Shown: piece by piece, positions 10,961-45,600 of the stretch
Position numbering within the stretch: the stretch's first letter is position 1
How the letters are laid out: the number at the start of each line of letters is the position of its first letter
Program-made: the position numbers and the translations under genes
The notes under the pieces: model-generated
What the model was told of the DNA's origin: nothing
What the model saw: only the letters and a program-made list of their open reading frames with translations
The model's database searches: none
NCBI GenBank assembly: GCA_040954595.2
Contig: CM082596.2
Span: 2,536,999-2,600,998 of the forward strand
Direction of reading: 5' to 3'
Origin: Balanoglossus misakiensis
Taxonomy: Eukaryota > Animalia > Hemichordata
DNA: 64,000 nt

Positions 10961-11582
10961 TGCCACTGCATGCACTGCACTGCCTTGCGGACAATCGACG
11001 TCATCTTTGACCGGACACAGTTCGTGATTTTTTTTTTGCGGTTAACTTCTGGTCCGATGCGGACAATTATAACAGGAACTGAGAGGAACTTTGTTAGTTG
11101 GATCTTCAGAAACAAAGTGTAAGTAGTGGACTTTAATATACGCCTACATAATAAGAACAACCCTTAGTCAATATGCGGAATACGTTTTGACAAATAATTT
11201 CAGCTCGTGACAACAGCGAAGTTCAGCAGCAGATTTCGGTATCCACTGCTTCGTGTGTCGCTGTGGACGGCTGGGACACCAGGCCAAAACCACCGGAATA
11301 CCCACTTCGCCCATCTTGGAGAAATCGCGTATGCACAAACGTGAAGACATTTTCAGCTTTATCCAGGGCAGCAACTGGAGATGCAGAATCGTGGAATATA
11401 TCGCATGTCTCAACATAGGGTCAATAATGTGAACTTTGACCTGGGATAGCATTGTCTTACTAAATTCTATCGGGAGGCGTGTTGCCCTGTCTGTACTCCC
11501 TTGAAGTGACATCCTTCATCACCTCACGCGAGAGAGAGTCTGTCACAATCATTTATATCGGTGCTAAGGAGTTTTTTGCAAA

Positions 11583-14500
11583 ATGAGGCCAGTGGGAACT
11601 TTTCTGTTGGTTTTCATATCTGTGCTGAGTACGCGGGGAGTTCAAACAAGGGAGGATTTTTGGTACGGTTACTGGGGCGACGCTAGCCCGGAAAATGACG
11701 AAAATGACTTCGATGCCCAGTTGGCCGCTCTGGAAGAGAACGGCGGCACAATGTACGACGACATGGATAACTTTTTCCCGTTTGATGACGAGACGTCGCG
11801 GCAGAATTTCGACGATTTGGAGCTGGAATTTGGCAGACAGCTGCAGCTCAACGAGGACGAGCTGTTGGCAGAGCTGCAGAAACAAAAACAAGACACGGAC
11901 AGGCGGTTTGACATCAACGAGTCTACGGACATCGGGAACGAAGTCGGCGGGGGAAGTTCCAGGTACGAAAACCGGGAACTGGGAAATGTCGTAGAAGACA
12001 ACGTATTAAATCCTGTGAACGAGGATCCTGGCGCTGGGGATTCCAAATTCGAAATCAGTGACGAGCAGCAAAGTTCACCTGGGGCGAGTAAACACTTCCC
12101 GCAAAGACTTTTTGATTCCCAGGTGGTATCAAGTGATAGTCCAGGCACTGAAGTAACGACAGTGATTGGTGGAAATTACACCAGCGGCGTTGCGTCATCA
12201 CTATCATCACCGCCATCTTCTTCTTCACAATCATCATCAACAGAATTGTCATCACATTTGAACCAAGAAAAACAACATGTAATCTTGGACGTCACTGGAA
12301 CGGGGTCAATGCCAGCGTCTCGTGTCAACATCGAAACAAGCAGTAAACATCCGGAGACTAGTATCGGACATGTCGGAAAGACGGCCGAAGTCACTCAGAC
12401 GGTTACACCCAACATTGTACGGCCATCTTGGGAAGCTGGCATCACTCGAACCAGTTCCCCCACTCCTCCTTTGACCAAAGTGGTCCTCATCAGCAGTAGT
12501 AGTGGTAGCAGCGCCGGACTTGACTCGAGCTCGATGTTAACGTCTTCATCGGATTTGAACCAAATTTCTGCGGCATCTGCAAGTGGTGTTTTTAATCCTT
12601 CTGTCATCAACGTGACCCGTACGCTTTCACCCCTGACTGCAGCGCAGTCACTCAAAGCCAGACTCAAAGATACCACGTCACCAAGTCAAAGAACTGACGC
12701 CTTCCTTCACGCGACGTCGCCACCAGCCGTATTGGAAATTCTGAGAAATTCAACACCAGGGAAAAGCGTGCATGTTTTGGACACACTCGTCGCCGACAGT
12801 TCGGAAACTCTGCCGGATACTCCGACAAGTGTTGATTTTGAGAAATGGAGCGAAATAAATCGTACGAGTTCTACTTTAGAGAACTGCACGACTTCAACAA
12901 CAGAAGAGGTGTCGAGATTTGCAACCAAGGTAGACTTAATTTCGATGTCACCATCTTCAAGCAAAGCAAATATAAATTTTACGGAAATGAAAAAGTCAAA
13001 ACACTTTCTGGAACCCTCGCCTGTTTGGCCAGAAAGATTTCAAGAAGAAACTCTCAGTTTACAACTGTCAACGCTGAACTCTGTGATAGATGGCTTGGAT
13101 GACGTCACCACAAGCCGTGGTGACGTCGACTGGCCTGGGGTTGTGCTGCAGACGTCATCAAGGACATTCTCACCTGGAATTTTAGAAAGCCACGAGACTA
13201 GTGAAAATGAAAACAAAGTCGCGAGGTCTCGCCATGAAGGTGAAAGTTGGATTAGGCCTACATCAACTTATCGGCCGGAGTTAGTCACATCTTCTGGTGT
13301 GCCAGAAGATTCCTTTGAAGATGCCTATCGCGATAGCAGTAAAAGTGTGAACTTAAAAGTCACTAGCACGGTCGTCAGTCGGGAATCGTCTGGTTTAACC
13401 ACGTCATTGCGAACAGAAGGCAAAGTTTTGGCCAAAATATCGCCATCGCCGACACAGACAAGGGCAGACATCAGCACCAGTAGTACGACTGGTGGCCAAC
13501 CGACCAAACAGACTGCTGTCCTGACGAGAGAATCGTCACCAATTGCTCGCAGTAGATTTGAAATATTACCGACCGAAGTGACTCGGATCCAAAGTAGTTT
13601 CTACTTTCCGACGGAATCGCTCTCCATGGAAACACGGCAGAAGCCAACACCTGTTGATTCTACCTCTGCCAGCCTCCTTTTGGATCATGACGTAATACCA
13701 CCATCTCCCAAAACCGGACTGGCAGGTGCAATCTTGCAGTCGCTTTACACCCGTCGGATGAAGAACTTGTCGCGATCTGGGCTTTTGGAAGCACCGAGCC
13801 TGTCCACCACACAGCTGTCAGTTGTCGAAACGATAACCAACCCGGTAACAAGATTGGCATCTTCTGAGCCTTCCGTAACCCTTGGCAACGATTTGATGCA
13901 TAGCACCAGAGCCGATACAAGCGGCGATAACAAAGGACATGTCACCTTTATAAGCGATGAAAACAAGCAAACATCAACAAACCTTGGTTATTCACTATAC
14001 ACAATCCATCCCGATCACCTGATCAGACCGACATCACAGCGGCTTCAACAACCGGAAACATCATCAACGTTATCTCGAGACGACATCGACCAGGTCAATT
14101 TGCAAACCGCTAAAGTCACAGCACCCAGTGTACAAAGCAAAGCGTCGACGCCGACAGTGCCATCCTTCGCAATTAAATCATCAGAGTCTCCACCGCTAAC
14201 CATTACGCTGTCTGATCCATCAACTTCATCCCAACACAGAGCTACTGAAACACACGCAGTCGATAAATCAGTCGCGTTGTCTTCGATTGACCCCGCGAAA
14301 ACCGGGCAACTTGCGACGCGTGCATCAATCATAGCTGATATGCCACTTGCAGAACAGAGTGCAAGCGTTCCGGCTACAGTTACCATGACAACAGCATCGG
14401 CGCGAGAAGATAATGACAAGATAACGGACAGTTCAGATCTGGAGGGGACCCAGACTGTGGATGTGGTAACCGTGATACCTATTGACTCAGACGCTTCTGT

Positions 14501-17205
14501 CCTCATCGAACCGAAGGCTTCCTTGACCCCGACCCCTGATCGTGACGCTGCCGTGAAAAGCCCATCATCACCATCGCTCCAAATCACAGATGATATTGAA
14601 AAGCATCCAACACTGACCGGCTTAGCAACGGAAGATGCGACCAAACGCGTGACCCCGTCTGACGGGATGACCGTGGGGTCAACAGCTCACAAATCATCCA
14701 GTATCGCAGACACGGTGAGAAGTCCGACAATAACACACACAGCACCGACCCCAACAGCCAGGGAACCCGCATCTCAAGCCAATAGGACGTTCACAGCCAA
14801 TGCAACAGTCACTGACCACGTGGAAGTTACGCAAAAGCAAGAAGTTGCCAGGCCAATCGGTCATTCGCTTACGTCACCACAACCCAGTAACTTCTCCGGG
14901 CCAATGAACAGCACAGTGACATCAGATTGGCCAAAACATCCACACAACACATCTTTGCAACCACAACCACTTTCACAAAGGCCGAGTGGTAACCGCACGG
15001 GTTTGCCGCAACCAAAAACACTACCACTAAATTTGATCGTATCAAATAAAACTACAGATGCACTGAACACGATAACGCCGACAGTAAACGCGAGCGAACA
15101 GGCCAAAACAGCGTCCAATACCACGAACGCCAGAAAAATATCCCTGACACACATGATGAAAACGATTGCTAGCAGTAAACCAACTTCAGGGTCAGGTTCA
15201 GACTCTGTCGAAAAGGTCGACGAACCGACCGTAGCAACCACTGAGGACACGCTCGACTTTGACCGAGGCCAGGGTCACCACGTGGCCTGTCCTCCGAAAG
15301 CGGCGGCAGAATACTGCGTCAACGGAGGCACCTGTCTACGCATACCACACGTGGGAGTGCTGGCTTGTGAGTAAGTATTACATAATGTTCATTTTAGTTA
15401 CCATTTTCCATATATAAGTATGTGCTTACCTCTTTGCATTCTTGCACCGAGGCCTGTTAAAGTATACAGTCTGTAGCGATAGCGAGCACGTACAAGGCTC
15501 AAAAATAGTCTCAATCGTTCCGAGTAGGCAGCTACACTAAAGCCATGATTAAAGATATGATAGCACTTTTAAAAACTATTTTCGAAATCTGTATGCTACT
15601 GCGGGACATGAATATTGAGATGCCGTATCATGTTTTTCACATGCTATGTACGATGATACAATATCGAAATCGCTCGTGCGTGCTGAGTGGGCTAATGAAT
15701 TGATATTTGATCCAAGACTGTACATAAGTGACAAAAACAACTGCTTGGGTGTTTTAGTGGAATTTACAAGTATGGGGTGGTCAAGCTCGGGACCAGAGAA
15801 CTTATCCTACAGATCTCTCTATCTCACCTCTTCCCAGGTGCGCCCCGGGATACCAAGGTATCCGTTGCAAGGATTGGCTACCGGACAAGTATCGTATCGA
15901 TCTCACGTCAGACGAGATAATCGATACTGCTTTGGGATTCGCTGTCGCCGTGACGTCGCTGGTTCCCATTGGCGGTGTGACTACGTACGCGTATTACAGT
16001 TCGTAAGTATATGATTTTTTTCTGCGTCTTGCAGGGGAAAACTAATTTTAGTCCGACTTGAAATACTAGTGATGGTGGTTAGCCAGTGTTCACATTCTGG
16101 TGTCGTAATTCAAGAAGAGACCCGTTGATAGGAATTTTAATAATATTCCTGGCTTGCGGCGGCTTTTGTTAATAATCACCGGGATATGAAACACGATATA
16201 ATTGAGAGAGAGAGAGAGAGGGGGGGGGGGAGAGAGATTTGTAAGGTTACAGTGTGAAGACAGGGGCCGTGATCTTAGGCCTTGAGGAGTTATATGAAGT
16301 TGAACTTAGGCGACTCCCGCGTAGTAAATGATAAATGGAACTGAACTAGGATATACGACAGATTTAAACATTTTGAGAAAACGCTATTAACGTGAGCGAT
16401 CAACGTGTGTTTCATATCATCGTCGGATTTGTTCGAATACCACGCAACAAGTATGTGTATCGGCCATCTCCCCGAGCAAATTTTAATCAGAGTTTAAAAT
16501 TTGTGTCATTCCACTCGTATCGGCTGTACACTCTACTGACAGATCGAAGCAAGACAACCTCTCTCAGCTATGCTATTTTCATTTGCTCCGTGTCAGAAGG
16601 TTGACAAGGACTAGCAGATAATTTTCTCAGTGTTGTGTTACAACGTGTTTGATGCAATTTAGTTCATTGGATCCGACAGCGCTGCGTGTACACTTTTCTT
16701 ATTTCCAGAATCGACGTCTTAATTGAAACGTATATTGCTTGCACTCGTTTGTAGAAATGCCGACCTTCTTAAGATATGTGTGCTACTGTAATAGTCGCCG
16801 AGAAAAAAAAATCTCGCAAAACTGCTGTCTGTTTGTTCGCGTCTTTTTTACAAGAGGGACTATGGTTCATGCACGTTGTGGTGACGTTTCGAGCCCACAC
16901 CAATTCCACGTCATTGGTCCGACAAACACGCATCAAATGGCATGACAATGCTCTTCGGGAAAAAAATCACAGTTCTGTTTACTGTACCCTGACATTCGCG
17001 GGGAATGTTTACATCTATCCCGTCGCCTTAAATGACCTATGACGATGCCTATCTAAAAGTTTGTTGTTGGCTGTTGATGAATGTGCAGTGGTTGACACGT
17101 CTTTTTTCCCCATTTGACTTTTTCAGGAACAATGTTCCCGCAAGTGACGAAATATCAGATCAGGTGAACGCTTTTAACAAGTATGATCAAGATTTCGACG
17201 AGTAA
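11583..17205 (+). CDS. Type I membrane protein (~1343 aa): signal peptide, acidic N-terminal region, ~1100-aa S/T/P mucin-like stalk, single EGF domain, TM, short acidic tail; putative EGFR/ErbB ligand precursor
   Basis: Exons 11583-15370 (GA|gtaagt), 15838-16002 (cag|G...TC|gtaagt) and 17127-17205 (tttcag|, TAA) total 4032 nt in frame. EGF: CPPKAAAEYCVNGGTCLRIPHVGVLACE|CAPGYQGIRC. TM: ALGFAVAVTSLVPIGGVTTYAYY. The last exon is less certain than the first two. Confidence 0.85.
16204..16237. repeat. (GA)n / poly-G microsatellite
   Basis: gagagagagagagagag followed by a G run and agagaga, in the second coding intron of the EGF gene. Confidence 0.9.
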
Positions 17206-18333: not shown

Positions 18334-21300
18334 TTAGATTTCTGCAATAATGTAAGCATCAGCCAAACTGCCTTTCCTCATGTCGTGGAGTTGATCACCT
18401 CGTGGAGGCAAGGCCAGTAGGGCGTTGGCTGTCTTCAGACTTAAGAGACGACTGCTTCTCTGGCTTCCGGTACTGGTGGCACTGGGTACCGGATCATCCG
18501 GGGACCACTCCAGAACCACCCGGTGGAATTCCGGCCTGTAGTCTAATCTCACGTCGGATGATATCTGGGAATGAGAATTCAGAGTTTGTTTAAATCTAAA
18601 ACTGAAAAGTGTCAATCATAGTGGAGGGGGTTGGTATGAGTTCTCTTTAGCTGTATGTAAACTTGAATTTGTGTGATTATCATACACAGAGAAAATTCTT
18701 TTCGCACCTTGGCCTTGACCTTGGTGAGCTGAGGTTTTGGATGACCCATCATTTTCCTCAGGGAGGGTACGACAAACAGATTGCAGCATACAACACCAGA
18801 CACAGGATTGCCTGCAAAAATAAACAGTAGAATTAGAAAAATATATATGATTGAAAGCCAATATAAAAACAAGAGCATGGTTGACAGCAAAACTGCAGTC
18901 TTAAAATATTTTCATATTTCTGACTGATATGATGATTTTACTTACCTGGAAGGGCAAAGAACAGTTTCTTTTGTCCATTATATTCCAGAGTAGCAAATGT
19001 GGTGGGTTTCCTACAAGACACAAGAAAATGCAAATCACAGATTTATACATTTCTGACAATAATGTCAGAGGGAAACTAATTCGGCGATTTGCCAAAAATC
19101 AACTCACCCTGGCTTGAGAAAGACTCTCCCAAATGCAACAGTGGCACCCAACTTGACTTGCAGAACATGTTTGAGGTAGTCCTTCTCACCCATGGACACA
19201 CCACCAGTTGTGATGACCACATCAGCTTTCTCCAGGGCTCCCTTCATGGTCTCTTCCAGTGATTCTACACTGTAAGGGATAGATTCATTTACAGTGAAAC
19301 TAATCAATCAATCAATCGATCAATCTATCAGTAGTTAATTCTCCTATCAAACACCCTCTCTAAGAACTCAGCAGACACATTGTGTGGGTTCTCACCTGTC
19401 TTTGGCAATGCCTGCATCCACTGTGGTGTACCTGTGTTGTTTCATGAGTGCCAACAGAGTTGTTCGGTTGCTGTCATAAATGTGGCCCTCCTTCAAAGTT
19501 TCTTCTGGCTCGGCCAACTGTAATATAACAAGGAAATCTATTATTGGTATTGACCTCTGCATTGGTGCATGATCTTGGACCCTGTAAAATCTGGCAGATA
19601 TAGGGGCTTTAAACTTTCACACTTGCCTCATTTCCTGTTGACATGACAGCCACGATTGGCTTGGAATGAACCTTGACCTTTGTGACACCAACCGAAGCCA
19701 ATAACCCGAGTTCTGAGGGTCCAAGCTTGTTTCCCTGTCTGAGAATGGTTTCTCCCTGCTTGATGTCCACTCCAGTAGGTCTAGAAGTTCAAGCAAATTT
19801 TTAATGACAAGAAAACTCTTTATTGTCTTAAACTAATACCATGACATAGCTGAATATTCACCAAGGAATCATATGCCTTCTTACCTGATATCCTGACCAA
19901 CTTTTGGTTCTTTCAAAATGCGAACTTCCAGTTCAGTGCATCCCTACATGAAGGTCAGAAAGATGACATCACGGTGAAATAAGAGTACATCAAGAAATCT
20001 GATAGGTTCCTTGTCTTTGTCTGTAACCAGAGCAGTGTGTCAGTAAACAGGCGCTGTTTTACTCTGAAGTATACCTGCTCTCATACTCACATCATCTGCA
20101 TCCTTGATCAGTTGAGTGTCTTCAACCTGCACGATGGCATCAGCCCCAGGGGGCAAGGGAGCCCCAGTTGTGATTCTCATAATCTGACCTGATGTAATCT
20201 TTCTGGTTGGCATATCCCCAGCAGTGCTGTCACTAACAACTTGTCGCACACCTGCACCATCAGAAGCTAAGCCAATGAGAAATTCCAGTTAGAAGCTAAT
20301 CCAAAGAGATGACAATTAACTAACATTAACTAACAGGCATGAATGACTACTTAGGTAAATATACTTGATCAAGAACAGTTTTGCTATTGAGTGTACAACC
20401 AGGTGAGGTGCCCCATGCACTGACCAATCACGGGCGTAATTCTGAAATACTAACCAATCACAGCATAGCCATCTTTGACAGAGGCTGGAAATGGTGGCAC
20501 AGACACTTCAGCAAGCACATCACTGGCCAAGATATAACCCAGAGCACCTGTCAAAAAAAATCATTTCAAAATACATTATACAGTCAAGCCTTTCAACATG
20601 ATGGGCTGTGTGAAGTTTGTCCTGTGCCACATGAGAATGTCCTCTCATATTAAGGGCATAGCCACCCATGATCTCACAGGGTCTCATGCAGTATAGTAAA
20701 TGGTCTATTCTCAGTGTTCAAAATAATGGTGTGTTTCCTCCTCTTACCCTTGGTATCCCTAGTTTCTGCTCCCAGTACTGGTGTGTTCTCCATCACTCTC
20801 TGCAAAGCCTCTTCAAACGTGATCAGTGGATATGGCGAATGTCTTGGACGTCTTGCCACCTTTTCGACATCGTGGCTGTGATGGCCTGTAAAACAATGTA
20901 TTTGTTTCAGTTCTAGAGTTGATCTGAATGACTTCAGTGGATCAGTTGAAGACTGATTAACTTCTTGAAGAACATTCTCCTCTGTACATGTGAAATGAAT
21001 GCATCATAAACTGATTATTTTTACACACCACCTGCATATTCTTGCTGTTCAGGGTCACCGTGATGATGGTGATCATCTCTGCCTCGACCTCTGCGATGCC
21101 GGGGACTGTCTCTGTCTTCATTATGACCTCGTTGGTTTCTATGGCGTTCACTCTTCACTCTATGATGATGGTGGTCATCTTTTCCATCATGACCTCTGGG
21201 GTCGTCACCATGGGAATGGCGGCGACGCTGATGATGATGGCGATGGTCCTACAATAGACCAGTGATCTTTATTGTAAACTAGCTATGCCAACTTTAAAGC

Positions 21301-24300
21301 ATTTTCACTTGATTTTCAAAACAGATTAGAACCATGTTGATCATTTCAGTTGATAACGTGTTGAGTAGACATGCATGAGCACACTGTCATTTTTTCCAAC
21401 CCAAATATTCAGCAATATTGTACTGCTGACCTCACACTCATTCAATGATCAAACACAGAGTTTATAATGGCTAGACATATTTTGGTTTATTTCTATCAAC
21501 AGTACAGTATGTTTCACAAAATATGGATGCTTTGTGTGTCCCATTGTTGATACAAATTTAAGAGATACCAACATGGCAGTAGGTGTATCTCATCTACTCA
21601 AAATAATGTACTCTTTTTTCCTTCATTATGTTTTCTTTTTTGACATAAACAGGAAATTCAAATGATACAATGAACTATATTATATAATGTCTGGAGGTAA
21701 AAAGGAGTAAAGGTAAAATCTAGGGTATAAATCCAGGTACTCAGTTTGTGCATATCTATGCATGCTTATTGTAAAATCTAAAAATATTTTTCTTAAAAAG
21801 AAGCTGCTTTTTGAAAACACATTACAAATAAGTTATAGGTTTCAGCTTTAAGATATCCAACAAGTCAGAATTGGATATCACATAATCTGGTCAATAAAGA
21901 TGTTGCCGTTTGCATTTCAGTTCAAGCCTCATCATCTGCCTCTGAAGACGAACTTGACCCCACGGGACATTCAATGCTCTCCAGGGCTTGCATCGCTGTT
22001 CTTGGTCTTGACCTTTTTCTCCTTTGACTCTCACCTCTTCTACCGCGCCCGCCTTTATCTGTTGCCGTAGTGACACTGGAATTATCGCCCTCTGTCTTCA
22101 TGGCTTTGGGTACCACCTTCTGCGGTTGTTTAACTTTCCTGTGTTTGGGCTTCTTGGTTGCTTTTGATCCTTTCTTGGCCGGTGAGCTGGCGTTTCCGGC
22201 ATTGGACGAATTGCTCTCGTGGGGGCTACCTCCTGCCCCAGTCTGGCTATCTTGCTTCTGGGTCTGACCTTGTGCGTCCTTCACGCTGTAGCTAACGTCC
22301 CTTCTCCTCTTCCTCATCCCGGAGATGAAGAAAGAGACCCTCTGCTTGGAGATGGATTTCACCTTCTCCACGGATGCCGGGTGCGACTTCAACATTCCGT
22401 AAATGTCCTTGGGAGACTGGCGGTCACAGCGCGACATAATCACGTCTCTCACATCCTGGTCAAGACGCAGACTTTCCTTGGGAGGAGGGTTCCATTGGAC
22501 TGGGCTGTCTTCAGGAATGTGACTGCCTGTAATCTTGACTCTCCAGTGGTCTAGGTCACTCAAGAAAATCTTTAGTGCAATTAGAAGTGAACAGTTGTGT
22601 CGATCTTGTTTGTGGGCAACTCCTTTACAACCTAAAAGAAATACAAAATACAGTAAATATCATGTACAGTTATTCACAAACAAAAAAGATAATATCACAT
22701 AAATTATTTCATTGTTGTTGTGTTTTCAAGTCAAATTTCAGTATTTTCAGTGCAAGGGTGGAATGTACCATATTTACTGACCTGGCATACACTTTCCATA
22801 GCCCCCACAACCTCTCTTACAGTTGCCATGTCCGGGACACCACAGATACCATGCCACGACATACTGATCACGTTGCTCATTGCTCTGTATTTTGCGAACA
22901 CGCTTCAGTCCTTCCTCTGTGGCTACAAATCGGTCGTCTACGCGGTTGCGTTCGTGAACATGCTGCCCTCGCTGCCAGCTCCCTTTGTCGATGGCACCGT
23001 CGTCTCTCCTCATCGTCACGAGGTTTCGCTTGACATCGCGTTTTCCGCGGTTGAGCGTCATGTCCTTGAAGAGGTCGTGAGTCTTGAGGAAATTTTTGAG
23101 TGGCTGTCCCACTGGTACCTCCGTGTAGTCCTTGCACGACTTCCATGAAATTCTCTCGCTTTTGCCGGATGACACTGTGCTTTCTTTCTTCTTCTGTTTC
23201 TTGCTGCGTTTTCTGTCTGTTTCAACGTCAGGTTCGTCAAATTCAAACACATCCACGGCGCTTGCTGTCTGCTGATTGGCCACCCCTTGTTGAGTCGCAT
23301 CATGCGTGTCCTCTCTATCTTCGTTCTCCACACTTGTGTTCGGATTGTCGTCACTTCTTGTGTTAGGGAAGTCGGGATCTTCCGTAATGGACACTCGGAT
23401 CACATCTTCCTCCGGCACAATCCAGTAATGCTTTCCTGTTAAATTTTCAACTTGTTGGATGCCTGCGCCGTCGAAACTCTTCGTATTGGGAATTCTTTCT
23501 GATTGTTCAGAGGACGGGCCCAAACAGGGATTTGACGTTTCTGAATGCTGTGGTGAAAACTCATCACCGTTTGCGGGGTGAATTTGAACCGGGTAGGCTG
23601 ACTTTATAGGCAGCGGTGTAGCAGATTCACTCTGTCTTGAAGGACAAACATGTCTTGAAACGACTGGCTGATTAAGAATGGTTATGTCTGCTTCGCGACT
23701 GTCACAGAATTCTGTCACCTCATCTGCTGTGTTTCTTGTATCTGATTCTGTGTCTTCGTCAGCTGGGGGATTATCTGTGGTCTGATCGACAATGGGTGAC
23801 AGTCAGCGTATTCAAGCAGTGAATGAACATCTTGAATGATGCATCAGGGGAGTGTAAGATATTGTAGAGTTTAGTTACCTGTTGGACTTCAACGTGAGTT
23901 GTTTCCACCTTCTTCTTATTGTCACGTAACAGATGAATTGCGTGGGGCAAGGCTGGTAAGATGATCTCAAAACATTCCTGTAGTGACAGTGAGAAACATT
24001 TATGAAGTATGTGTATCAATATTAAGGACACATCAACTTTCCCTAATATTTTGGTATAAAGTGGAATTCCAAATGCCCCTTGAGTCTCTATTCGTGTACA
24101 CGTTATTTGATGACACACACATACCTGTGATCCTTTTGCACTTCCGGGCAGATTGACGATGAGAGTCTTCCCACGAATCCCACACACTGGTCTGTGGAGA
24201 TAAACAACAGAAAATACATTGATTTCTATGGTAAAGATGGATTCAAAACCGGCCCATTGCATTCATATACACGTTTATTGAACACAGACAAAACATAGAG

Positions 24301-25802
24301 TAGCGCCTGTTTACCTTGACAACATTGCCATCTGTGTGATTCTCAATGATCCTATGAGCATAGCCGTTGCCATACCTGGGCATTCTTTCTCTATCACTGC
24401 CTTGGTTGCCTAAAAGATAACAGATCCCATGATATAGATTTAACTACTGATGTTCACTTGAAAATTTCTGATTGCATGTTCTGGGACATGTACAGATAAT
24501 AATAAAACATGTCCTTGAGTGCCTAAAAGTTACCACCAGAAGAAACAGGTTCGGTGAGATAGTAAATGTGATGAACTGTCCTCACCTCAGGAGTAACATC
24601 TCTGGGAGCAAAGCCAGTTCCACCAATTGTGAGTATCAGATCAGTCTGCAGATTGTCACTCCAGTCGATCAATGTCTCCTTGATTTTTGTGGTGTCATCA
24701 GGAACAATGGCTTGAACTGCAACTACTGCATTGAGGCTGGAAATCAACAAAAAGTAGCGATTATGGAAATTAACTAGGGAATTATAAATTAAAACTCAGC
24801 TTGCCTAATGTATTGTATTTACAAAAAATATAGTAACTCTTTCTCCACCATGATTTGGTCCAACTCCATTGTTCTCGATGGGGTGAAAAAAGGAAACTAC
24901 TTTACCTCTTCTCATGTTTCACCAACTTGCACAGATTGGATCCACTTTTGTCTTCAGCTTGACCCAAAGAGCACCTGTCGCTGGCTGTTGCCAGGCAACA
25001 AAGATAGAGATGCAAAGCTCAGTTGATTCAGTTATGAAGAACTGCATGCACCTATTTTATTTGTGTACATCCATACAATCTCCTGCTCAGTTGATGATGA
25101 TAGCCACAGCACATCCATATCGTGCTACAAACAACATCATCAACCGAGCAGAGATATTATCTTAAAATTATGGACTTATATTTCTATCGCCTCCCCCCCC
25201 CCCCAAAAAAGTTTTTTTTTCCTCCTCATGATCACACAAAAAATTGTGTCAAGAACTTGTAGACGAAAGTTACAAAAAACATCAAAAAGTTTTATATTTC
25301 AACCACACCTTTGTCACATTCCTTACATGTCAAAACAAACACATTGTATATATTAATAAATAACAATAAAATATGCAAATGACGAGCACTGTAAACTAAT
25401 GGTGCCAAATACAGTTTTAACAATAAACAAAATAGTTGTCACTAGGTATGTAGTATGTATGCCAATCGGGGCCTTACACCACTGTTAACAAATCGATGAT
25501 GCATACATGACTAGTATTTACAGTTTGCTCAGCTCGATCGCGAATGAACACGTGAAATAGACACGGGCGGAGTTAGGCGAAGCCATCATCGTCGCGTTGT
25601 TATGCTGTAACATACAGTTAGGCATTAGCTGTGTAATTAACATGTCGCCAAGAGTTCAAATAATCGGGGTGAAACAGATGTATGACCGTAAGATAACGCA
25701 ATCGCATTCGGGATTATAATATTGACTGGACGGCGGGTCAACCTTACCGGTTAATATGCCAATTCTCATTCGATCGTCGTCTACGCTCTGATCGTGCGCC
25801 AT
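18334..25802 (-). CDS. GPHN: Gephyrin (molybdenum cofactor biosynthesis; MogA-like G domain plus MoeA-like E domain), 17 exons, 688 aa
   Basis: Exons (high-low): 25802-25748, 24984-24906, 24736-24586, 24409-24315, 24191-24125, 23977-23879, 21248-21032, 20885-20748, 20547-20455, 20266-20091, 19943-19885, 19780-19627, 19517-19396, 19269-19108, 19010-18946, 18811-18708, 18564-18334 (2067 nt, in frame). Motifs: [97 protein letters not shown] at 18281-18276. Confidence 0.96.
19302..19330. repeat. (ATCA)n tetranucleotide microsatellite, imperfect
   Basis: aatcaatcaatcaatcgatcaatctatca in a gephyrin intron. Confidence 0.7.
21922..23781 (-). CDS. Two alternative terminal exons inside gephyrin intron 6 encoding 569 aa: acidic linker, Cys/His-rich putative zinc-binding domain, basic tail
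   Basis: Exon A 23781-22782 (ctgac branch point, atcag| acceptor in phase 0, CCA G|gtcagt donor) and exon B 22631-21922 (tttcttttag| acceptor in phase 1, TGA) join ORFs 22774-23718 and 21922-22563 into one frame. AATAAA at 21491-21486. Confidence 0.8.
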
Positions 25803-25951: not shown

Positions 25952-26964
25952 AATCGCTCATATCACCAGAGAAGAGTAGAAAGGAAAGGTATGTATGGAC
26001 GATCATCCTGAACCTTGCGATTAATCGTTATGTTTGTGTACGAACAAGGGAACCCGGGGGCGAAATTTGAGGGAACCGTGGCTCGAAGTTTTCACGTGTC
26101 TACCGCTGGGGTTGCTGCAGTTTTTTTAGCATCACAACTCCCCTTGACGATTTTTGTTGTAAACACAAAAATAGTCAGGGGGAGTTGTGGGGCTACAAAA
26201 CTGCAGCAACCGCTGGGGTAGGCTTGATGTCCAAGATTCAGCCCAATACCAGGGGTTTTGTTTGCCATTTTTGGGATTGGCTGTTACACCCCCCGGTTGC
26301 CATTAGTGCAACCACTCAAGTTCACGTGGTGTCAACACGTGAAACTGCACTGGTCAATGACCTTCTCCATATTGCGCAAATGGAATGTACTGAATATCGA
26401 TTTTTTCCATAGTGTAGTTGAAGAAACAGAGTGGTTGTATAATTTATTGTCTGAGTCAGTTGATAAGAAACACACATTGTATAAATTGTTGCAAGTCTCA
26501 CAAAGACAATTTGACTGGAGGAAAGTGAATGGGTTGTAATTCTAAGGGTGTCATCTTTTGTGTAGTCCCTTTTGTACATTTCTAATTCAGTTTGCAAATT
26601 TGCAAAATTAAATGTGTTTTAAAAACCACCCATAATATGAAACTGGAACTAGTCTTGTGTCAAAAGCACCAGACTGTCATGTGTCCATAACATCATTTCC
26701 TCATTTGGCAATGTGATGTTGATCGCTTCAACACACTTCTGTCATGCAATTTCTGCCCTGGAGTACTTCCTTGTTTCACTTTTGCACATGATTTGAGGGA
26801 TTTCCAATGATCATTGATTGATACAATGCAAGTGTAATTGGCAGATGCGTCAGTTGTACTAGCTGGGCAAGTAAAAGAAGCAGGATAAAACAAGTGCATA
26901 TTTTTGTCTTTTGATTTCAGGAAAGTTTACTTGGCTTCTGGATATATCAAGTTATTAGAGGAAA

Positions 26965-27981
26965 ATGGATGTGGTGACAGCAAAAGTAATAGCACTGTTT
27001 GTGTTGTTGATAGAAGTTCTAATATTTGGTTTTATACCTCTGGCATTTGTTAATGCTGTGAAGTCCCAGGATCAGTTTAGTTTGACCAGACGGATCATCA
27101 GCTGGCTGAGTTGTTTTGCCGGAGGCGTCTTCTTTGCCACCAGTATGCTCCACATGCTTCCTGAAGTCCGGGAATTGATCGAGCACGGCCTGGAAGGGAT
27201 GGGAATCCATTCCCACTTTGCCCTGGCGGAGTTTGTGACTGCTATTGGCTTTTTCGTGATCCTGGTCACTGAGACTCTGGCGATGTTTTGCCACAAGCAA
27301 AGCGAAACGCCGGCTCCGGCAAAGTCGGGTGGAAATCATCGGATAGAGGATGCTGCCACCTATGGCGCTGCTTCAGAGCGTGTCTCACTTTTTGAGGAAG
27401 CAGAAGGGAATCCAAAGGATGCAGCGGAAGGAGACTCGCCATCGCCCGGTCAATCGCAGGAATGCGACTTGGTGGTAGAAGAGACCAATGAGCATGTACA
27501 CTTTGACACTGGCGGTTCAGCCCTCCGATCGATCATGTTCCTGCTGGCACTCTCCCTCCACTCTGTCTTCGAGGGAATGGCTGTGGGACTGCAGCGCGAC
27601 GTTGGCGGCACCTTCGAGCTGTTCCTGGCCATCGCTCTCCACAAAGGAATCGTGGCCTTCAGCTTTTCCCTGAACCTCATCCAGAGCAACCTCAGCAAAG
27701 CTGGAATGATCGGCTCCGTCATCACCTTTGCCATCATGTCACCCATTGGCGTAGCCATCGGTATTCTCGTCAGCTCCACCACGGCCACCGGCCCGGAAGC
27801 GGAATTCGCCAACGGAATGCTGCAGGGCCTGGCTACTGGCACCTTCCTCTATGTAACATTCTTTGAAATTCTTCCGCACGAACTGAATGTGAAACGGGAC
27901 GAACTTCTCAAAGTTTTATTCATAATTTTCGGCTTTGGCTTGATGACGGTTATTGACATAGCGGTGCCACACAGCCATTGA
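26965..27981 (+). CDS. ZIP (SLC39) subfamily II zinc transporter, ZIP1/ZIP2/ZIP3-like, 338 aa, intronless CDS
   Basis: CFAGGVFFATSMLHMLPE; TM4 LALSLHSVFEGMAVG; TM5 AIALHKG; MSPIG; LQGLATGTFLYVTFFEIL. About 8 hydrophobic segments with a variable cytosolic loop. Confidence 0.95.
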   Translation: MDVVTAKVIALFVLLIEVLIFGFIPLAFVNAVKSQDQFSLTRRIISWLSCFAGGVFFATSMLHMLPEVRELIEHGLEGMGIHSHFALAEFVTAIGFFVILVTETLAMFCHKQSETPAPAKSGGNHRIEDAATYGAASERVSLFEEAEGNPKDAAEGDSPSPGQSQECDLVVEETNEHVHFDTGGSALRSIMFLLALSLHSVFEGMAVGLQRDVGGTFELFLAIALHKGIVAFSFSLNLIQSNLSKAGMIGSVITFAIMSPIGVAIGILVSSTTATGPEAEFANGMLQGLATGTFLYVTFFEILPHELNVKRDELLKVLFIIFGFGLMTVIDIAVPHSH

Positions 27982-39600: not shown

Positions 39601-42600
39601 TCACGTCTTGCTAAAAATCTGCAACGGCTTGTGCGTACACTCAATCCAAAGCATTGACCTGATAACGTCATTTTATCACTCTTCTGGAACAATCGACATA
39701 TTCACACATTTTTTTGTCAGGTTGATGGATTGTCAACTTTCTCAAGTGGCTTAGTGACTGAAATAAACTGAAGTTTTCTCCGCTTGGATGAGTGATGTCT
39801 CAGTCAAGTCTTGAATGAGTAATGCATCAATCAGTCAAGTCTGCGAAATTTGTTTTCAAATCTCGGCTCTTCGCGTAGTTCTGTAGCTGATCCTGAAATT
39901 TGTTTTCTCAGCAAGAATCGATGTGATCAGACATTAAACGTCTTGTCAAACTCAGTAGGACGGTTCTACAGCTAATGCATATATGATAGATGAAAATCAC
40001 TCTGTTGAGAATGTGAATGTATTATAACAAAATGGCCGTCTGTAAAATGTGTGAGTGAAATTCTAAAGTCAGAGCACATGACTGTTTTATTGCCATGTTA
40101 TTACTATTTGTTGTACTCATGATGCAGGATAAGTAGAAAGTGAAACAGACCTTTTCAAATAAAAGAACTCTATGAATTATGGACTGTTCAGTATAATCCC
40201 TGGTGTATCATTGAACAGTCTGGCTAGAGGAACCCAGGTAATTTTGAGGACAATGATTTACAACCCTTTGGAGCGCCATTCAAATAGAAGAGAAAATTTT
40301 AATTCCTTCCTATATTTGGTGAATTAAAAAAAATGAGGTTCCTTCCACAAACGAGATGTACCAATTCAAATTTTTAGTTCCATCGAGACAAAAGACCTAC
40401 ATGTATAAAACTTCTGTCTACATTGGGGAAGCATTGCAGCTCTCTTGAAAAGTGTATCACGGATTTCCTTTTCTCTATTTTCTGTGTTCAGACTCTTAAA
40501 GGTATCAGAGGAGCAATTGAAACACTTAAAATGGTAAATTGTCGCACCATAAATACCATCCCAGTGGGTGTCATTCCAATTAATTGTCAGGCAAGCCATT
40601 TACTGGAGAAGTTCCTTTTTCGTGTTTTATCAGTATCGTCCTATAAAAAGTAATTGTTTCGTTTTCTGCATATAGTGTCATTTTGGCAGATTAATATTAT
40701 CATATTATCATATCTGAAGCTGCTGTGTTTGACTAATTCCATGGAAGAGAATATATCTAGTTTGTCAACTGTTTATCGTTACCGTAGATGTGGAATGTCT
40801 TCACAAAGGTGACAGGAAACTGGTGACAGTTTTTGAAATCAATTACTGAATTTTTTTTTCCAAAAGAAACTATCACTGAAACCTTGTAGTTGAATGATTG
40901 AATGTCACAATATGGCCATTACGAGCCTTGTAGTTGCGAAAGTCACCCCCCTACTTCGAGGTCAAGTACACATTAGAGCACTTTATACAGATAAATTTGA
41001 TTCCATAGTTGATGTCTATCTGTCACTCTGGCAGCAGAGAGCCCTGACTGGTACGAGTAACAGGTCCCGTCGTCGCGGTGATGGAGCAGCAAGGGCTGCT
41101 GAATTATTCATTCTGCGGTTATACTCTGAATGATTTATCAGTTTAACAGCGACTGTTGATATTCAAAGGTTATTGATTGTATCTTGGCTGTGATTTAACG
41201 GTTTGCCGAGAGACAGTGCGTGGATCAATAATTAAGAAATGGCCGTTGATAGTTCTATGAAGGCTACCTTTAGCAGCGAGAATCATTGTTCCCTACGAGA
41301 TGCCTCAGTACCTTTATACTGGTATTTTTTGCCATAATTTAACATTTTACTTCACTTCATAATCAAAATTGGTGAGATTTGTCATTTCCTTGTAAATTTT
41401 TCACGTTAGTTTGCACTACGTGCCAAACAATGCTCAGTCAAACAAAAATACCATTGAAGTCACTGATGATGCTTTTTCGCAGATTCCTTTCATATAATTA
41501 AGAAAAACAGAGCATCAAATAATCATTTCCTTCATACGTCACCAGCACGACCAGAATATTGTGTAAATGAAATTAAGTGGGATAATTGAAGCTCCTGTTT
41601 TCATGAGAAATGAACTCTGCTGGAAAAAGACAATGATCAATGACTGGAAACTCATATTAGGCGTTGTGCCATAAAATTTGAATTCACCCCCAGGAACTAG
41701 AATTTTCAAAAAGGACAGCACAACAAAAATCTACACAAAACAAAAATGATGAAACACATATTTATTGTCTTTATATAAGCCACTGTCACCAATATGGCGA
41801 GATGGTAGAGCTGTAGTCATACACAAAATAATCATTTGCAAAATTTAGTATCTCTGTCATATATAAAGGAAGGCAAAAATTCTGGCTCAAATAAGTTTGC
41901 TGTCACAATTCTTCACTGTTATGTAGTTCTGGTTCAAACTGAAAAAAGCAAGAAATAACCGGCTGACAAAAGAGTTGAGACTGACCTTAAAAACAAGTAC
42001 TGTCAGAATATCCAAAGTCCACAATAAATTTCAATGCACTGTAACGTATTCTTGAATCATAGTGTCTGGAATAGAAAATGAATGTCAGTCATATCTCCTA
42101 CTCCAGTTTTGTGTCCCCACTTATCTCTTGATCCATATCTGTATTGAACCGTTTGTGCTCGTGCACAGTGCACAGTGACAGGCTTGTTCGATGCTTTGAG
42201 CCCTTTCCTCTGGAAGTTCATTGGTTTCTTTGTCTATGGCACTACGTGAATCGTAAGGCAGACAGTCGACGCTATATCGCGAGTTTTCTTCCTCTTCTGT
42301 GCACTCTGGGAGAATGTCCGGCAGTTTTCTCTTGCTGAATGTGTTATAATGTTTTCCATTGATCATATATTTGTGTCCGTTGTGGTCGGGTAAATTCTCA
42401 CTTCTGGCTGAGGTCGTTGAACCTTTACGGGCTATCCGCCTCTCGCTTTCCTCGTACATGAACGCACTCGTCGACTGGAGTGAGGATTTCCTGCTACTCT
42501 TTCGGATGGAACTGGCGCGGCTTGGCGACGAGGTACTGCCTTTCAAATTACAGTGGAACAAATCGATGAAAGCCCGTCTGAAATATTTATTGAGGAGTCC

Positions 42601-45600
42601 GTAAATCAGTGGATTGAGACAACCTGACGTGCAGTACAGAGAGGTGACGGTCAGGTACACGTTGACCGACAGACTCTCATCCCTGTCGACCATGCGTATC
42701 ACCGCAAACGGCAGATAGCCAAGCGCGAGTGCCAGGCATATTGTCACGCACGTTCTAGCCAACTGGATTTCCTCCTGCGTGAGGTTGAGTGTTGTTCGGC
42801 GATGCGTGACGTACTTCGCGACTTTTTGCTTGGTCCAGTGTACTTCCAGCATGATGTGACCATAGCAGAACATGACGAGGAGTCCAGGGACAAGGAGAAG
42901 CACGACCAGGACAAGAATAAATTGATACTGGCTGTCGCGTGAGTTGAGCGAACATCTCAGCAGGGTGTCGCTGTATGTCACGTTGCCCCACTTTCCCCAG
43001 TACGTGGGTGCCATCACGAGGATCGGGAACACCCAGATGAAGACCAAGACAATTGCAAACGTGTGCTTCTTTATAATCCTCCACGCTATCTTCATATGCA
43101 CAATGTGGAGGTAGCGGTTCAGTGCGATGAACGCTGTGTGCCACAGCGAGATCCCGACCAATATCGGCACGCAGTAAGCCATCACATGGCACATCTTGTC
43201 CCCGATTCGCCACCGCCCGTTCAGAAACGTGTCGATGCAAGGCGGCAGGATAATCAAGATGAACAACAAGTCGCTTATGGCCAGACTTCCGATAAAAATA
43301 TTCGTCAGTTTCTTGAGTTTCGGGTGCATGGTTACCACGAGAAGAACCATAATGTTACCGATCAAACCGATGATTAGAAAAGCGATGAGACAGATCGCGG
43401 CTATGCACCTGGATACCAACAAATACACTGCAGCGTTGGTTTCATTAAAATTTGCAACGTGTAAATTTGTTAAATTCAGCACCTGTGTGGAATTCATCAT
43501 ACTTCATTCGGTGATGTTGTCAAATTTTCGAAATCACAACTCACAGCTCTTCAATTTCAAATGACAAAAAATATAACAGGGCAATTGAATTACTCCTGAT
43601 TAAGTTTGTTTCAGGCAGTGCACAAAATCCAGGAAAGAAGTCCCTGTAGGATTGGTTTAAGAATTAATGCTGTATCGTACCAAGTAGTTTGTGGACTTGG
43701 TTGAAACAGAAATTGGATTTGGCTGTAATGAAATCACTCTCAATACAAAGTATGGAATGGCTTCTCTAAGTTACATCAAGAAAGTTGCTGATGTCTGGAA
43801 ACTATTCTAAAAATACCCTGAAAGCTTTTACTTCAGTCGGAAACATTCTTACGTGGGCAATGAATGTCAATGAAATGGAAAACAAGATACGCGACTGGAA
43901 TTTTAAGCCTCAGAATTACATCCTAAAAAAGCCAATACATGTGGAATGTTTATGGTGTACCCGGAGAGAAGAAAATAGATTTGTCAGCCTGGAAGATTGT
44001 TCCGAAATGTTCCGAAGAAATAGCCCTTAGTTTATAGTGCTGAGAATCTCGATTTCAAGACACCGGCGAAAAAGACATCTGAAGTGATGAAAATCCAAGG
44101 TGATATTGATCCATGTGAAATAGACACGCATATATCTCTTAATGTCGAGCTTCAAGTGTTTTCAGGTGTGTTGACACAGGTAATGAAATGTAAATATTTG
44201 ATCGGCCAGATAAACTGTAATGTCCTTTCCTGTTCAAAATGGTAAAAAACGGATAACTGGTACTCAAAAATACTTTCAGAGTATTCCTGTATTTTCTCCG
44301 AAAAGGATTAACACTGTGTCTGAAGGTGATCTCACAGATCCTGTCAGGTGTTGGTATTGTTCGAATCAGATCATGGTGTGAACCAGCTGATAAAATACAG
44401 ATATCCAGATGAGTTCTTGATTCTCTAATGATCCTCTTCGACAGGTTAAACTTTGTCACTTGTATTTCTTGGATTGTGCTTTACCTTCAAAGGGATTGTC
44501 TTCCTCGAAAATGGATAGATCCATATTCCATGGCATCTGATATCACACACGGCAGTGCTAGAAGTCGTCTCACACACACAATCCGAGGTCATGATTTCCG
44601 CGAAGGAATTGATGACGGATCATCATGTTGGTTTCACACGTGAGACGAAACGCATACCTGCGTGTTTGGTGTTTATGGTGCCGCACTCCGAAGGCCAGGC
44701 ACGAGGATCAACATGCAGCTCACAGAGGTGTTTGATCTTTCCCAGACGAGTCAGTCAGTGTAACAAACGGATTTAGTGGACCTTATTCAGGCAAGCTGTG
44801 TTTCAAACTTCAGATTCCAATGTACGCCGCTTGAAAACCTGTAGGCATCTGTTTTCTCCTCAAAGACGGATCTGTAATTTGTGTTTCCATGTAATCTCAA
44901 TCCAATCTCAGAACATCCCTCCTCTAGGACTAGACCATTCTGCCACTGGGGAGGTCGCTGCTTCCCCTGGACTGAACCATTCAACTGGTTGAACGATATG
45001 TAATTTACAAGCATCCCAGTGAGCCGTACCATTCCTCACCGGGGGGAGAACCGACTATCTCATAGAGAATTTTTATCAGCTCACACCCCCTCCCCCACAC
45101 CTGATTAAAATCAATGTGTTGCCACGTTGGAAATTGACTTTAATGGAGGACATTAATGTCCAAATATGTCTGGGTTTGTACCATGACTAAAACTTTATCA
45201 ATAGTACTTGGTAATTATCACAAATCAAATAACCCATATCTCTGATGTTTGTTTTATGAACAACGTCAATAGTTTGGCTGACTACATAGGGTGTGTGAAA
45301 GAATGCGGTCTTGGCCTCAGCTCAATCAAAACAATGCTTTATAGTTTTGATTTCAATGTGTGGTACATTTTGCACGAATACTGTTGTGTAAAAGGTTTGG
45401 AAGACCTCATTTTTCACTGATAAGATGGTGTGGTGTGTAGACTACGAAAGATGTAAATTCTCGTCAGCTCACTAAAGATCACTCATCCATGCTGACATAA
45501 GAGTCATATGTGATTTTCATCAGACATGATAATGGTGATTTGATCCTCTACAACATATATCAGAATTAGAGCCATAAGGAGAACTTATGTGAGGTGAATA

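Follow-up and report, generated by a model that had tools for sequence, protein, structure and literature searches.

The stretch analysed here (the window; 64,000 nucleotides (nt) of contig CM082596.2 from the hemichordate Balanoglossus misakiensis) carries on its minus strand a gephyrin gene with two predicted 3′ ends. In the canonical product, the G domain is spliced to the E domain (G+E), while in the second product, G+X, the same G domain is spliced to two alternative exons, X1 and X2, that encode a zinc module. The G+X isoform is almost certainly real. Taken as a whole, the evidence is best explained by alternative last exons that splice the G domain to a module derived from a transposase of a Mutator-like element (MULE), probably yielding a trimeric nuclear DNA-binding protein of ~750 residues that has likely been retained since early bilaterians.

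Two predicted 3′ ends of the gephyrin gene

Exons 1–6 of the gene encode a 182-residue G domain that ends in phase 0 and contains the conserved VPD, GGTG, DVTPEAT, LSR, and NLPGS motifs. Joined to canonical exon 7 (phase-0 acceptor at 21248), these exons give an open frame of 688 residues, and both this G+E product and the G exons themselves are, by sequence, ordinary for gephyrin. Joined instead to X1, they give a G+X frame of 751 residues with one stop, of which X contributes 569. An earlier note on this DNA proposed these as mutually exclusive 3′ ends; both frames are open, exon 7 and X1 are both entered in phase 0, and all of its coordinates for exons, introns, TGA, and AATAAA are confirmed. 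The features of the gene, all on the minus strand, are as follows.

25748–25802, minus: gephyrin coding exon 1 (ATG at 25802; open spliced frame, GT donor)
24906–24984, minus: exon 2, G domain (open spliced frame)
24586–24736, minus: exon 3, G domain with the GGTG and DVTPEAT motifs (open spliced frame)
24315–24409, minus: exon 4, G domain (open spliced frame)
24125–24191, minus: exon 5, G domain (open spliced frame)
23879–23977, minus: exon 6, end of the G domain, with the phase-0 donor common to both products
23782–23878, minus: 97-nt intron from exon 6 to X1 (ctgac branch-point-like site; weak acceptor)
22782–23781, minus: X1, an alternative exon of 1000 nt (poorly conserved acidic linker followed by the first half of the putative transposase-derived zinc module)
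23233–23253, minus: short, conserved acidic-aromatic motif, G+X residues 359–365, YxF-like, from its apparent likeness to the SGO1 motif in PMC10279526
23185–23214, minus: basic cluster, nuclear localisation signal predicted from sequence, residues 372–381
22498–23118, minus: zinc module, residues 404–560, WRKY-GCM1-like, split by the X1/X2 intron (C497, C503, C507, C513, C517, H527, C529, H553)
22632–22781, minus: X1/X2 intron, 150 nt, phase 1, GT-AG (same codon in relatives)
21922–22631, minus: X2, the alternative last exon, with 710 nt of coding sequence (rest of the zinc module, helix-turn-helix, basic tail, TGA)
22300–22485, minus: three-helix, helix-turn-helix-like unit with basic KRRR end, residues 565–626 (sea-urchin orthologue model)
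21486–21921, minus: predicted 3′ untranslated region of the G+X transcript, ending at AATAAA (21491–21486)
21032–21248, minus: exon 7 of the canonical product (acceptor in phase 0; encodes the His/Arg-rich linker in G+E gephyrin)
18334–20885, minus: exons 8–17, E domain of canonical 688-residue gephyrin

Within the 97-nt intron, the ctgac sequence sits 25 nt ahead of the acceptor AG, and the frame that runs through unspliced intron 6 meets a stop. X1 ends in phase 1. The first methionine of X is its residue 241, so that X on its own would be cut inside the conserved core. A second AATAAA lies at 21273. The joined protein aligns colinearly with the Ptychodera flava RefSeq model over residues 1–650 at 55% identity, which argues that the G+X frame is not a product of chance. 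As in exon 7 of the window, His-rich stretches also precede the E domain in the Owenia, Liolophura, and Diadema models, possibly as a metal-binding linker.

Conservation of G+X across animals

Analysis of longer proteins with the conserved part of X1 gives 13 matches among 57 candidates; 12 of the 13 contain the G-domain family, 10 of these without an E domain. A profile of the X core gives 44 matches, and the 29 that bear an organism name are all bilaterian; G is present in 24 of them, as G+X in 20 and as G+X+E in four. The named carriers comprise acorn worms, echinoderms (sea urchins and one starfish, brittle star, and crinoid each), amphioxus, molluscs (gastropods, bivalves, and a chiton), and one brachiopod, nemertean, and annelid each. 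X is therefore found in gephyrin models of seven phyla, as G+X in hemichordates, echinoderms, amphioxus, molluscs, the brachiopod, and the nemertean, and as G+X+E in the annelid model; many of the G+X models carry the RefSeq label 'isoform X1'. No cnidarian, ecdysozoan, tunicate, or vertebrate occurs among the 29 named matches, in a word-limited search with many unnamed matches, so absence from these groups is not shown.

The closest sequence to the window protein is that of Ptychodera (69% identity over the core), and in trees the window protein clusters with the two hemichordates (support 100/98–99); the trees follow the phyla roughly. The zinc module is 52–69% identical to 13 named orthologues and the G domain 53–73%, with linker and tail poorly kept. 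G+X has probably persisted from early in bilaterian evolution, at least since the protostome–deuterostome split. A young insertion is ruled out by the conservation of X in seven phyla.

The gene structure is shared as well. A core-profile search of 1.84 billion representatives yields 225 matches, of which the best 150 are listed. Among 175 profile-matching proteins, 62 end near position 120, the site of the X1/X2 intron in the window, and 41 begin close to or just behind it; a few of the 62 are transposase fragments. In five metagenome contigs, the X1 donor lies in phase 1 in the same codon (5/5), as does the X2 acceptor in the four contigs that reach it. G exons lie upstream in three of the five and an E exon downstream in two, one short contig holding neither, and phase-0 donor and acceptor candidates are present in all three contigs that hold exon 6. 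The order is G, X1, X2, E, both in the contigs and in the G+X+E models. Silent sites are saturated between the window and the contigs. Between the related contigs L002 and L003, the ratio of nonsynonymous to synonymous change (dN/dS) is 0.012/0.80 for the X1 core and 0.009/0.53 for the X2 core, or ~0.015. X is under purifying selection. The earlier note had asked that X stay in gephyrin intron 6 with dN/dS below 1, and the locus order and this ratio agree with that; the case it named against itself, a young multicopy or disrupted insertion, fails on the conserved core, the common intron codon, and the same ratio.

Evidence for a joined mRNA

An indirect sign of a spliced G+X transcript comes from P0192, a protein known from Logan assemblies only (17 cluster members). 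This 935-residue G+X protein needs 2,808 nt and lies on a contig of 2,952 nt. Since the whole joined protein fits a contig too short for introns, P0192 is probably the spliced mRNA of a mussel-like relative; it is 90.5% identical to the Mytilus trossulus G+X model, and mussel-like half proteins break at the usual X1/X2 intron. Four further single-frame G+X proteins (P0087, P0090, P0094, and P0098), on contigs of 1.8–3.9 kb, form a long branch inside the G+X group and may be spliced transcripts or retrocopies of the fusion from one lineage. Their G domain is still recognisable, with GGTG changed to GGIG and the LSR motif altered, at positions that we take to be pterin-binding.

Fold and residues of the X module

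As the intron splits the core in the window, folds were modelled on orthologues, namely sea-urchin X (predicted local distance difference test, pLDDT, 83) and the Owenia zinc module (pLDDT 95). In the numbering of alignment A3, hosts and transposases alike show almost no variation at C99, C105, C109, C115, H129, C131, and H155 (C99 in 92/96 rows, H129 in 73/79, C131 in 75/80, H155 in 79/80); W147 is present in 68/79 and missing in the 10 fungal-type MULE rows. Together with the cysteine at the intron, the seven invariant residues would provide eight likely ligands, six Cys and two His, for two zinc ions. The pattern of insert-type WRKY-GCM1 domains is present in two conserved cysteines with an insert between them and a Trp in the last strand, whereas in place of the C-terminal HxH/HxC there is a single H155 followed by x-Pro, and H129 stands ahead of the second Cys.

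The structural matches of the Owenia zinc module to the four-stranded sheet of WRKY-GCM1 folds, weak but in agreement with one another, are led by WRKY33 (Z 4.1, root-mean-square deviation (rmsd) 3.4, 73/79 aligned) and AFT2 (Z 4.1, rmsd 3.1, 72 aligned), with WRKY1 (Z 3.5) and GCM (Z 3.0, rmsd 5.2, 81 aligned) below them; WRKY, AFT2, and GCM account for 6 of the 30 best rows. Its neighbours in the Atlas are fungal clusters (0.93–0.94), then, as leads, GCM, CaRF, ZSWIM3/FAR1, and AFT (0.82–0.91), and a search of the Atlas by structure returns a 59-member, mostly molluscan G-domain cluster. A sequence search of solved structures with A1 gives 0 matches. Judged from these models, the X module is WRKY-GCM1-like and not a member of a named family. 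The Atlas also contains a cluster of plant aldehyde dehydrogenases, 14% of whose members have an AFT family domain, possibly another fusion of an enzyme to a WRKY-GCM1-type domain.

Behind the zinc module, the three-helix unit resembles Mos1 (Z 6.0, rmsd 1.8, 51 aligned) as a generic helix-turn-helix likeness, and generic helix-turn-helix matches dominate the fold search with the whole model. The X core is basic, with 48 Lys and Arg against 28 Asp and Glu in 239 residues. Ahead of it, mostly at a distance of 30–85 residues, the motif D-[VI]-[YF]-[DEN]-F is present in 48 of 102 redundant proteins, with all seven phyla represented, against 0.95 expected from shuffles, for a pattern that was widened after looking.

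Probable transposase origin of X

The X core (240 residues) is homologous to the N-terminus of MULE transposases, and a transposase origin is very likely from sequence. The earlier note called the module novel; it corresponds to the front part of a known type of transposase, the Mutator-like family. Among 51 matches scanned, P0153 lies above the MULE cut-off (34.8 bits), and below that cut-off, MULE or ZSWIM RNase-H-like families are matched by P0137 and P0141. X1 of the window is 30% identical to P0137 over 118 residues (E 9e-16), and X2 is 40% identical to P0153 over 67 residues (E 1e-10). Behind its core, P0137 contains D328, D418, a CxxH 19 residues on, E544, and a SWIM-type finger, an arrangement like that given for MULEs in the accessible text of PMC5499845 and PMC1702500. 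The divergent matches carry the core N-terminally, with the transposase after it, and one X relative comes from the fungus Diversispora. The DDE catalytic core of P0137 has no match in G+X or in the window, and the 64-kb window holds neither terminal inverted repeats nor a second copy of X.

In a 52-row tree, the gephyrin-linked cores form a group (support 92/87) with the degenerate copies inside it. A 23-row tree, rooted on four MULE rows and built without degenerate copies, animal proteins in which an X-like module stands alone, further long rows, and orthologues that were redundant, places 16 gephyrin-linked cores in one group (96/98), with the MULE-like fragment P0118 as the nearest row. 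P0118, P0153, P0128, P0142, and P0162 are transposase-like and closest to X, and some of them end at the X1/X2 intron codon, so that this intron may itself come from the transposon.

More distant X-like zinc modules occur in animals: Biomphalaria models have one fused to tRNA pseudouridine synthase 3, one ends a 1,909-residue amphioxus protein, one stands alone in Octopus, and one is doubled in P0132. The set comprises P0174, P0147, P0175, P0132, and P0164, which, from their sequences, are perhaps further captures from the same transposase family.

Proposed mechanism and alternatives

A MULE would have landed behind exon 6, its DNA-binding exons being captured as an alternative 3′ end while the rest of the element decayed. 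Gephyrin G domains trimerise, and G+X would therefore carry three DNA-binding heads. The G domain would act mainly as a trimerisation module, presenting three heads of two zincs and a helix-turn-helix on acidic linkers of ~200 residues, and the basic clusters would direct nuclear import. A trimeric DNA-binding protein of the nucleus is likely on these grounds, and the earlier suggestion of a nuclear or DNA-binding role stands as likely; G+X is likely a multivalent, sequence-specific DNA-binding regulator. The D-[VI]-[YF]-x-F motif would dock a chromatin partner, most likely at the STAG–kleisin pocket of cohesin, a target that we name tentatively and by analogy, and to which we give a rather low probability.

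Several points weigh against this account. In Balanoglossus misakiensis, the splice from exon 6 to X1 is a prediction and not a sequenced junction, and its acceptor, at 23781, is weak, scoring −0.4 against a leave-one-out range of −2.6 to 11.9 in a crude matrix made from the gephyrin gene's own 16 acceptors. Because this acceptor is weak and in-frame AGs further in, at 23667, 23631, and 23547, score higher (3.0–3.6), the exact start of X1 is uncertain; that start and the length of 751 residues are best guesses, whereas the architecture read from the sequence is certain, and the conserved core lies downstream of all four candidate acceptors. Among the 29 named matches, five show no G-domain family and four are G+X+E. 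The MULE match of P0137 reaches 20.1 bits, under the cut-off, and the proposed direction from transposase to host rests on domain architecture. Foldseek returns no match at E ≤ 0.001 for either model, Pfam has no family for either X exon or for any of the nine A1 rows, and the fold matches peak at Z 4.1, with none at Z 5 and the top one tied with an unrelated chain. The acidic-aromatic motif is missing in 54 of the 102 proteins, including venerid-type bivalve models, under the widened pattern. DNA binding, nuclear location, and trimer formation are predictions for G+X.

Of the alternatives, the best surviving, which we nevertheless consider unlikely, holds that G+X is a metabolite-sensing transcription factor in which molybdopterin or its adenylate, bound to G, switches the DNA binding of X and so ties gene expression to the status of the molybdenum cofactor (Moco), much like the Moco-status sensor suggested in the earlier note. 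All 14 ordinary G+X orthologues that were checked have the stretch from GGTG to DVTPEAT intact, yet G would be intact anyway, its exons being shared with the enzyme, and the four single-frame copies freed from the enzyme role show GGIG in place of GGTG and an altered LSR. As these copies keep a recognisable G domain with those motifs changed, their sequences suggest that the fusion needs the structure of G more than its chemistry. Some ~200 poorly conserved linker residues, moreover, part G from X. A precedent is in print, fungal WRKY-GCM1 domains fused to isochorismatase being described as possible sensors in the accessible text of PMC1702500. An extension of this idea, speculative and improbable to a like degree, would make the gephyrin of the bilaterian ancestor a two-product gene, encoding the Moco enzyme and a MULE-built trimeric factor of transcription or chromatin architecture that bound DNA, docked cohesin through a CTCF-like YxF motif, and read molybdopterin through G, a factor that vertebrates lost as gephyrin became a synaptic scaffold.

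It is distinctly improbable that a single long G-X-E gephyrin includes X1 and X2 as cassette exons, with no terminal alternative. Six database models do join all three parts (P0018, P0020, P0026, P0032, P0189, P0190), and X2 holds 15 phase-0 GT sites, but the points at which they exit X are not homologous, and some fall on the last few residues, as predictors do when they bridge an internal last exon; one has a duplicated E segment, one is flagged as low quality, and for two of these species newer models (P0013, P0021) terminate in X. X2 also has a stop in the window, L001, L003, and L005, and P0192 ends in X. A minor long G-X-E form may exist. Still less is to be said for a main role of G+X in mixed trimers with full-length gephyrin, where it would damp Moco synthesis or cap lattices and X would be secondary: such trimers are plausible since G domains trimerise, but a bare G would do, X is conserved like G, and invertebrate Mo-insertases are reported in the available part of PMC13262936 to be without the receptor-binding residues, which also makes the capping of synaptic lattices raised in the earlier note unlikely. 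Hardly credible, finally, is the reading of X as a separate nested gene that has a start of its own, with the G+X models joined by annotation, despite X-only models in Saccoglossus, one sea urchin, Mytilus coruscus, and Mya. The earlier note also held it unlikely; it is disfavoured by a first Met inside the core, only 97 nt upstream of X, the phase-0 donor and acceptor candidates in all contigs with exon 6, and the unbroken G+X frames of P0192 and P0094, whose contigs leave no room for introns.

Neighbouring frames in the window

A ZIP zinc transporter is encoded in a single frame at 26959–27981 on the plus strand, head to head with gephyrin and ~1.2 kb upstream. At 11568–15374 (plus) lies a Ser/Thr-rich frame of 1,268 codons that begins like a signal peptide and has EGF-like Cys residues at its end, for which Pfam gives no match, and at 42124–43503 (minus) a 460-codon frame resembles an intron-less G-protein-coupled receptor.

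Significance and comparison with known systems

G+X is almost certainly real, ancient, and apparently undescribed; the fusion of host exons to transposase DNA-binding exons is already known as a kind. For the gephyrin, cinnamon, and Cnx1 Mo-insertases, the accessible text of PMC13262936 (including 12 of its 21 supplements), PMC11489736, and PMC11291035 describes only fused or separate G and E domains and mentions no G with a third domain; that of PMC12062965 holds nothing relevant. The literature searched, with subscription papers mostly outside its scope, contains no gephyrin G isoform with an extra domain, in line with the earlier note. If true, the much-studied gephyrin gene has a second product in most invertebrate lineages seen, and G+X is one of the oldest host–transposase fusions with a readable origin, both products and the intron positions surviving in seven phyla. 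X defines a two-zinc module of DNA-binding type without a Pfam family, and G+X allows a direct test of animal gene regulation by Moco status. 'Split' or 'long-linker' invertebrate gephyrin models may be G+X; for Pinctada imbricata, Table S1 of PMC13262936, in its available part, lists separate G (KAK3093217.1) and E proteins, which may be G+X split from E by annotation.

The acidic-aromatic motif recalls, as a lead, the cohesin-binding YxF motifs of CTCF, SGO1, MCM3, and Phf2 (accessible parts of PMC10279526 and PMC11790891; for CTCF and SGO1 likewise PMC10003631, in part). The likeness lies in an aromatic-x-Phe retained across phyla within a linker that is acidic and otherwise poorly conserved, with a DNA-binding module behind it, whereas the window has Phe in the first place and many G+X orthologues are without the motif.

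With the insert-type WRKY-GCM1 domains of MULE transposases, Aft1/Aft2, Rbf1, FAR1/FHY3, and GCM, as given in the accessible text of PMC1702500, X shares the order Cys, insert, Cys, a strand with Trp, and His, a position N-terminal to DDE and SWIM in its transposase relatives, and a weak fold match to WRKY, AFT2, and GCM. It differs in having no Pfam match, in four extra insert cysteines (putatively a second zinc, as in GCM), in a C-terminal end that has a single His where those domains have HxH/HxC, in an HxC located at the second Cys, and in a long extra N-terminal part and a helix-turn-helix behind.

The closest parallels are the host–transposase fusions made by alternative splicing, CSB-PGBD3, SETMAR, and KRABINER (bioRxiv 10.1101/2020.05.07.082677, accessible text). 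Common to these and G+X are host exons spliced (for G+X, by prediction) to transposase-derived exons, retention of the parental product, a preference for the DNA-binding part, and purifying selection; G+X likewise combines a transposase-derived domain, purifying selection, and one orthologous locus. In contrast to those fusions, the host part of G+X is a metabolic enzyme domain and not KRAB, SET, or SCAN, and the donor is Mutator-like, a word absent from the main text of that preprint as far as accessible. G+X, for which the named matches include no vertebrate, dates at least to the protostome–deuterostome split, as against at most somewhat over 350 million years for the fusions described there.

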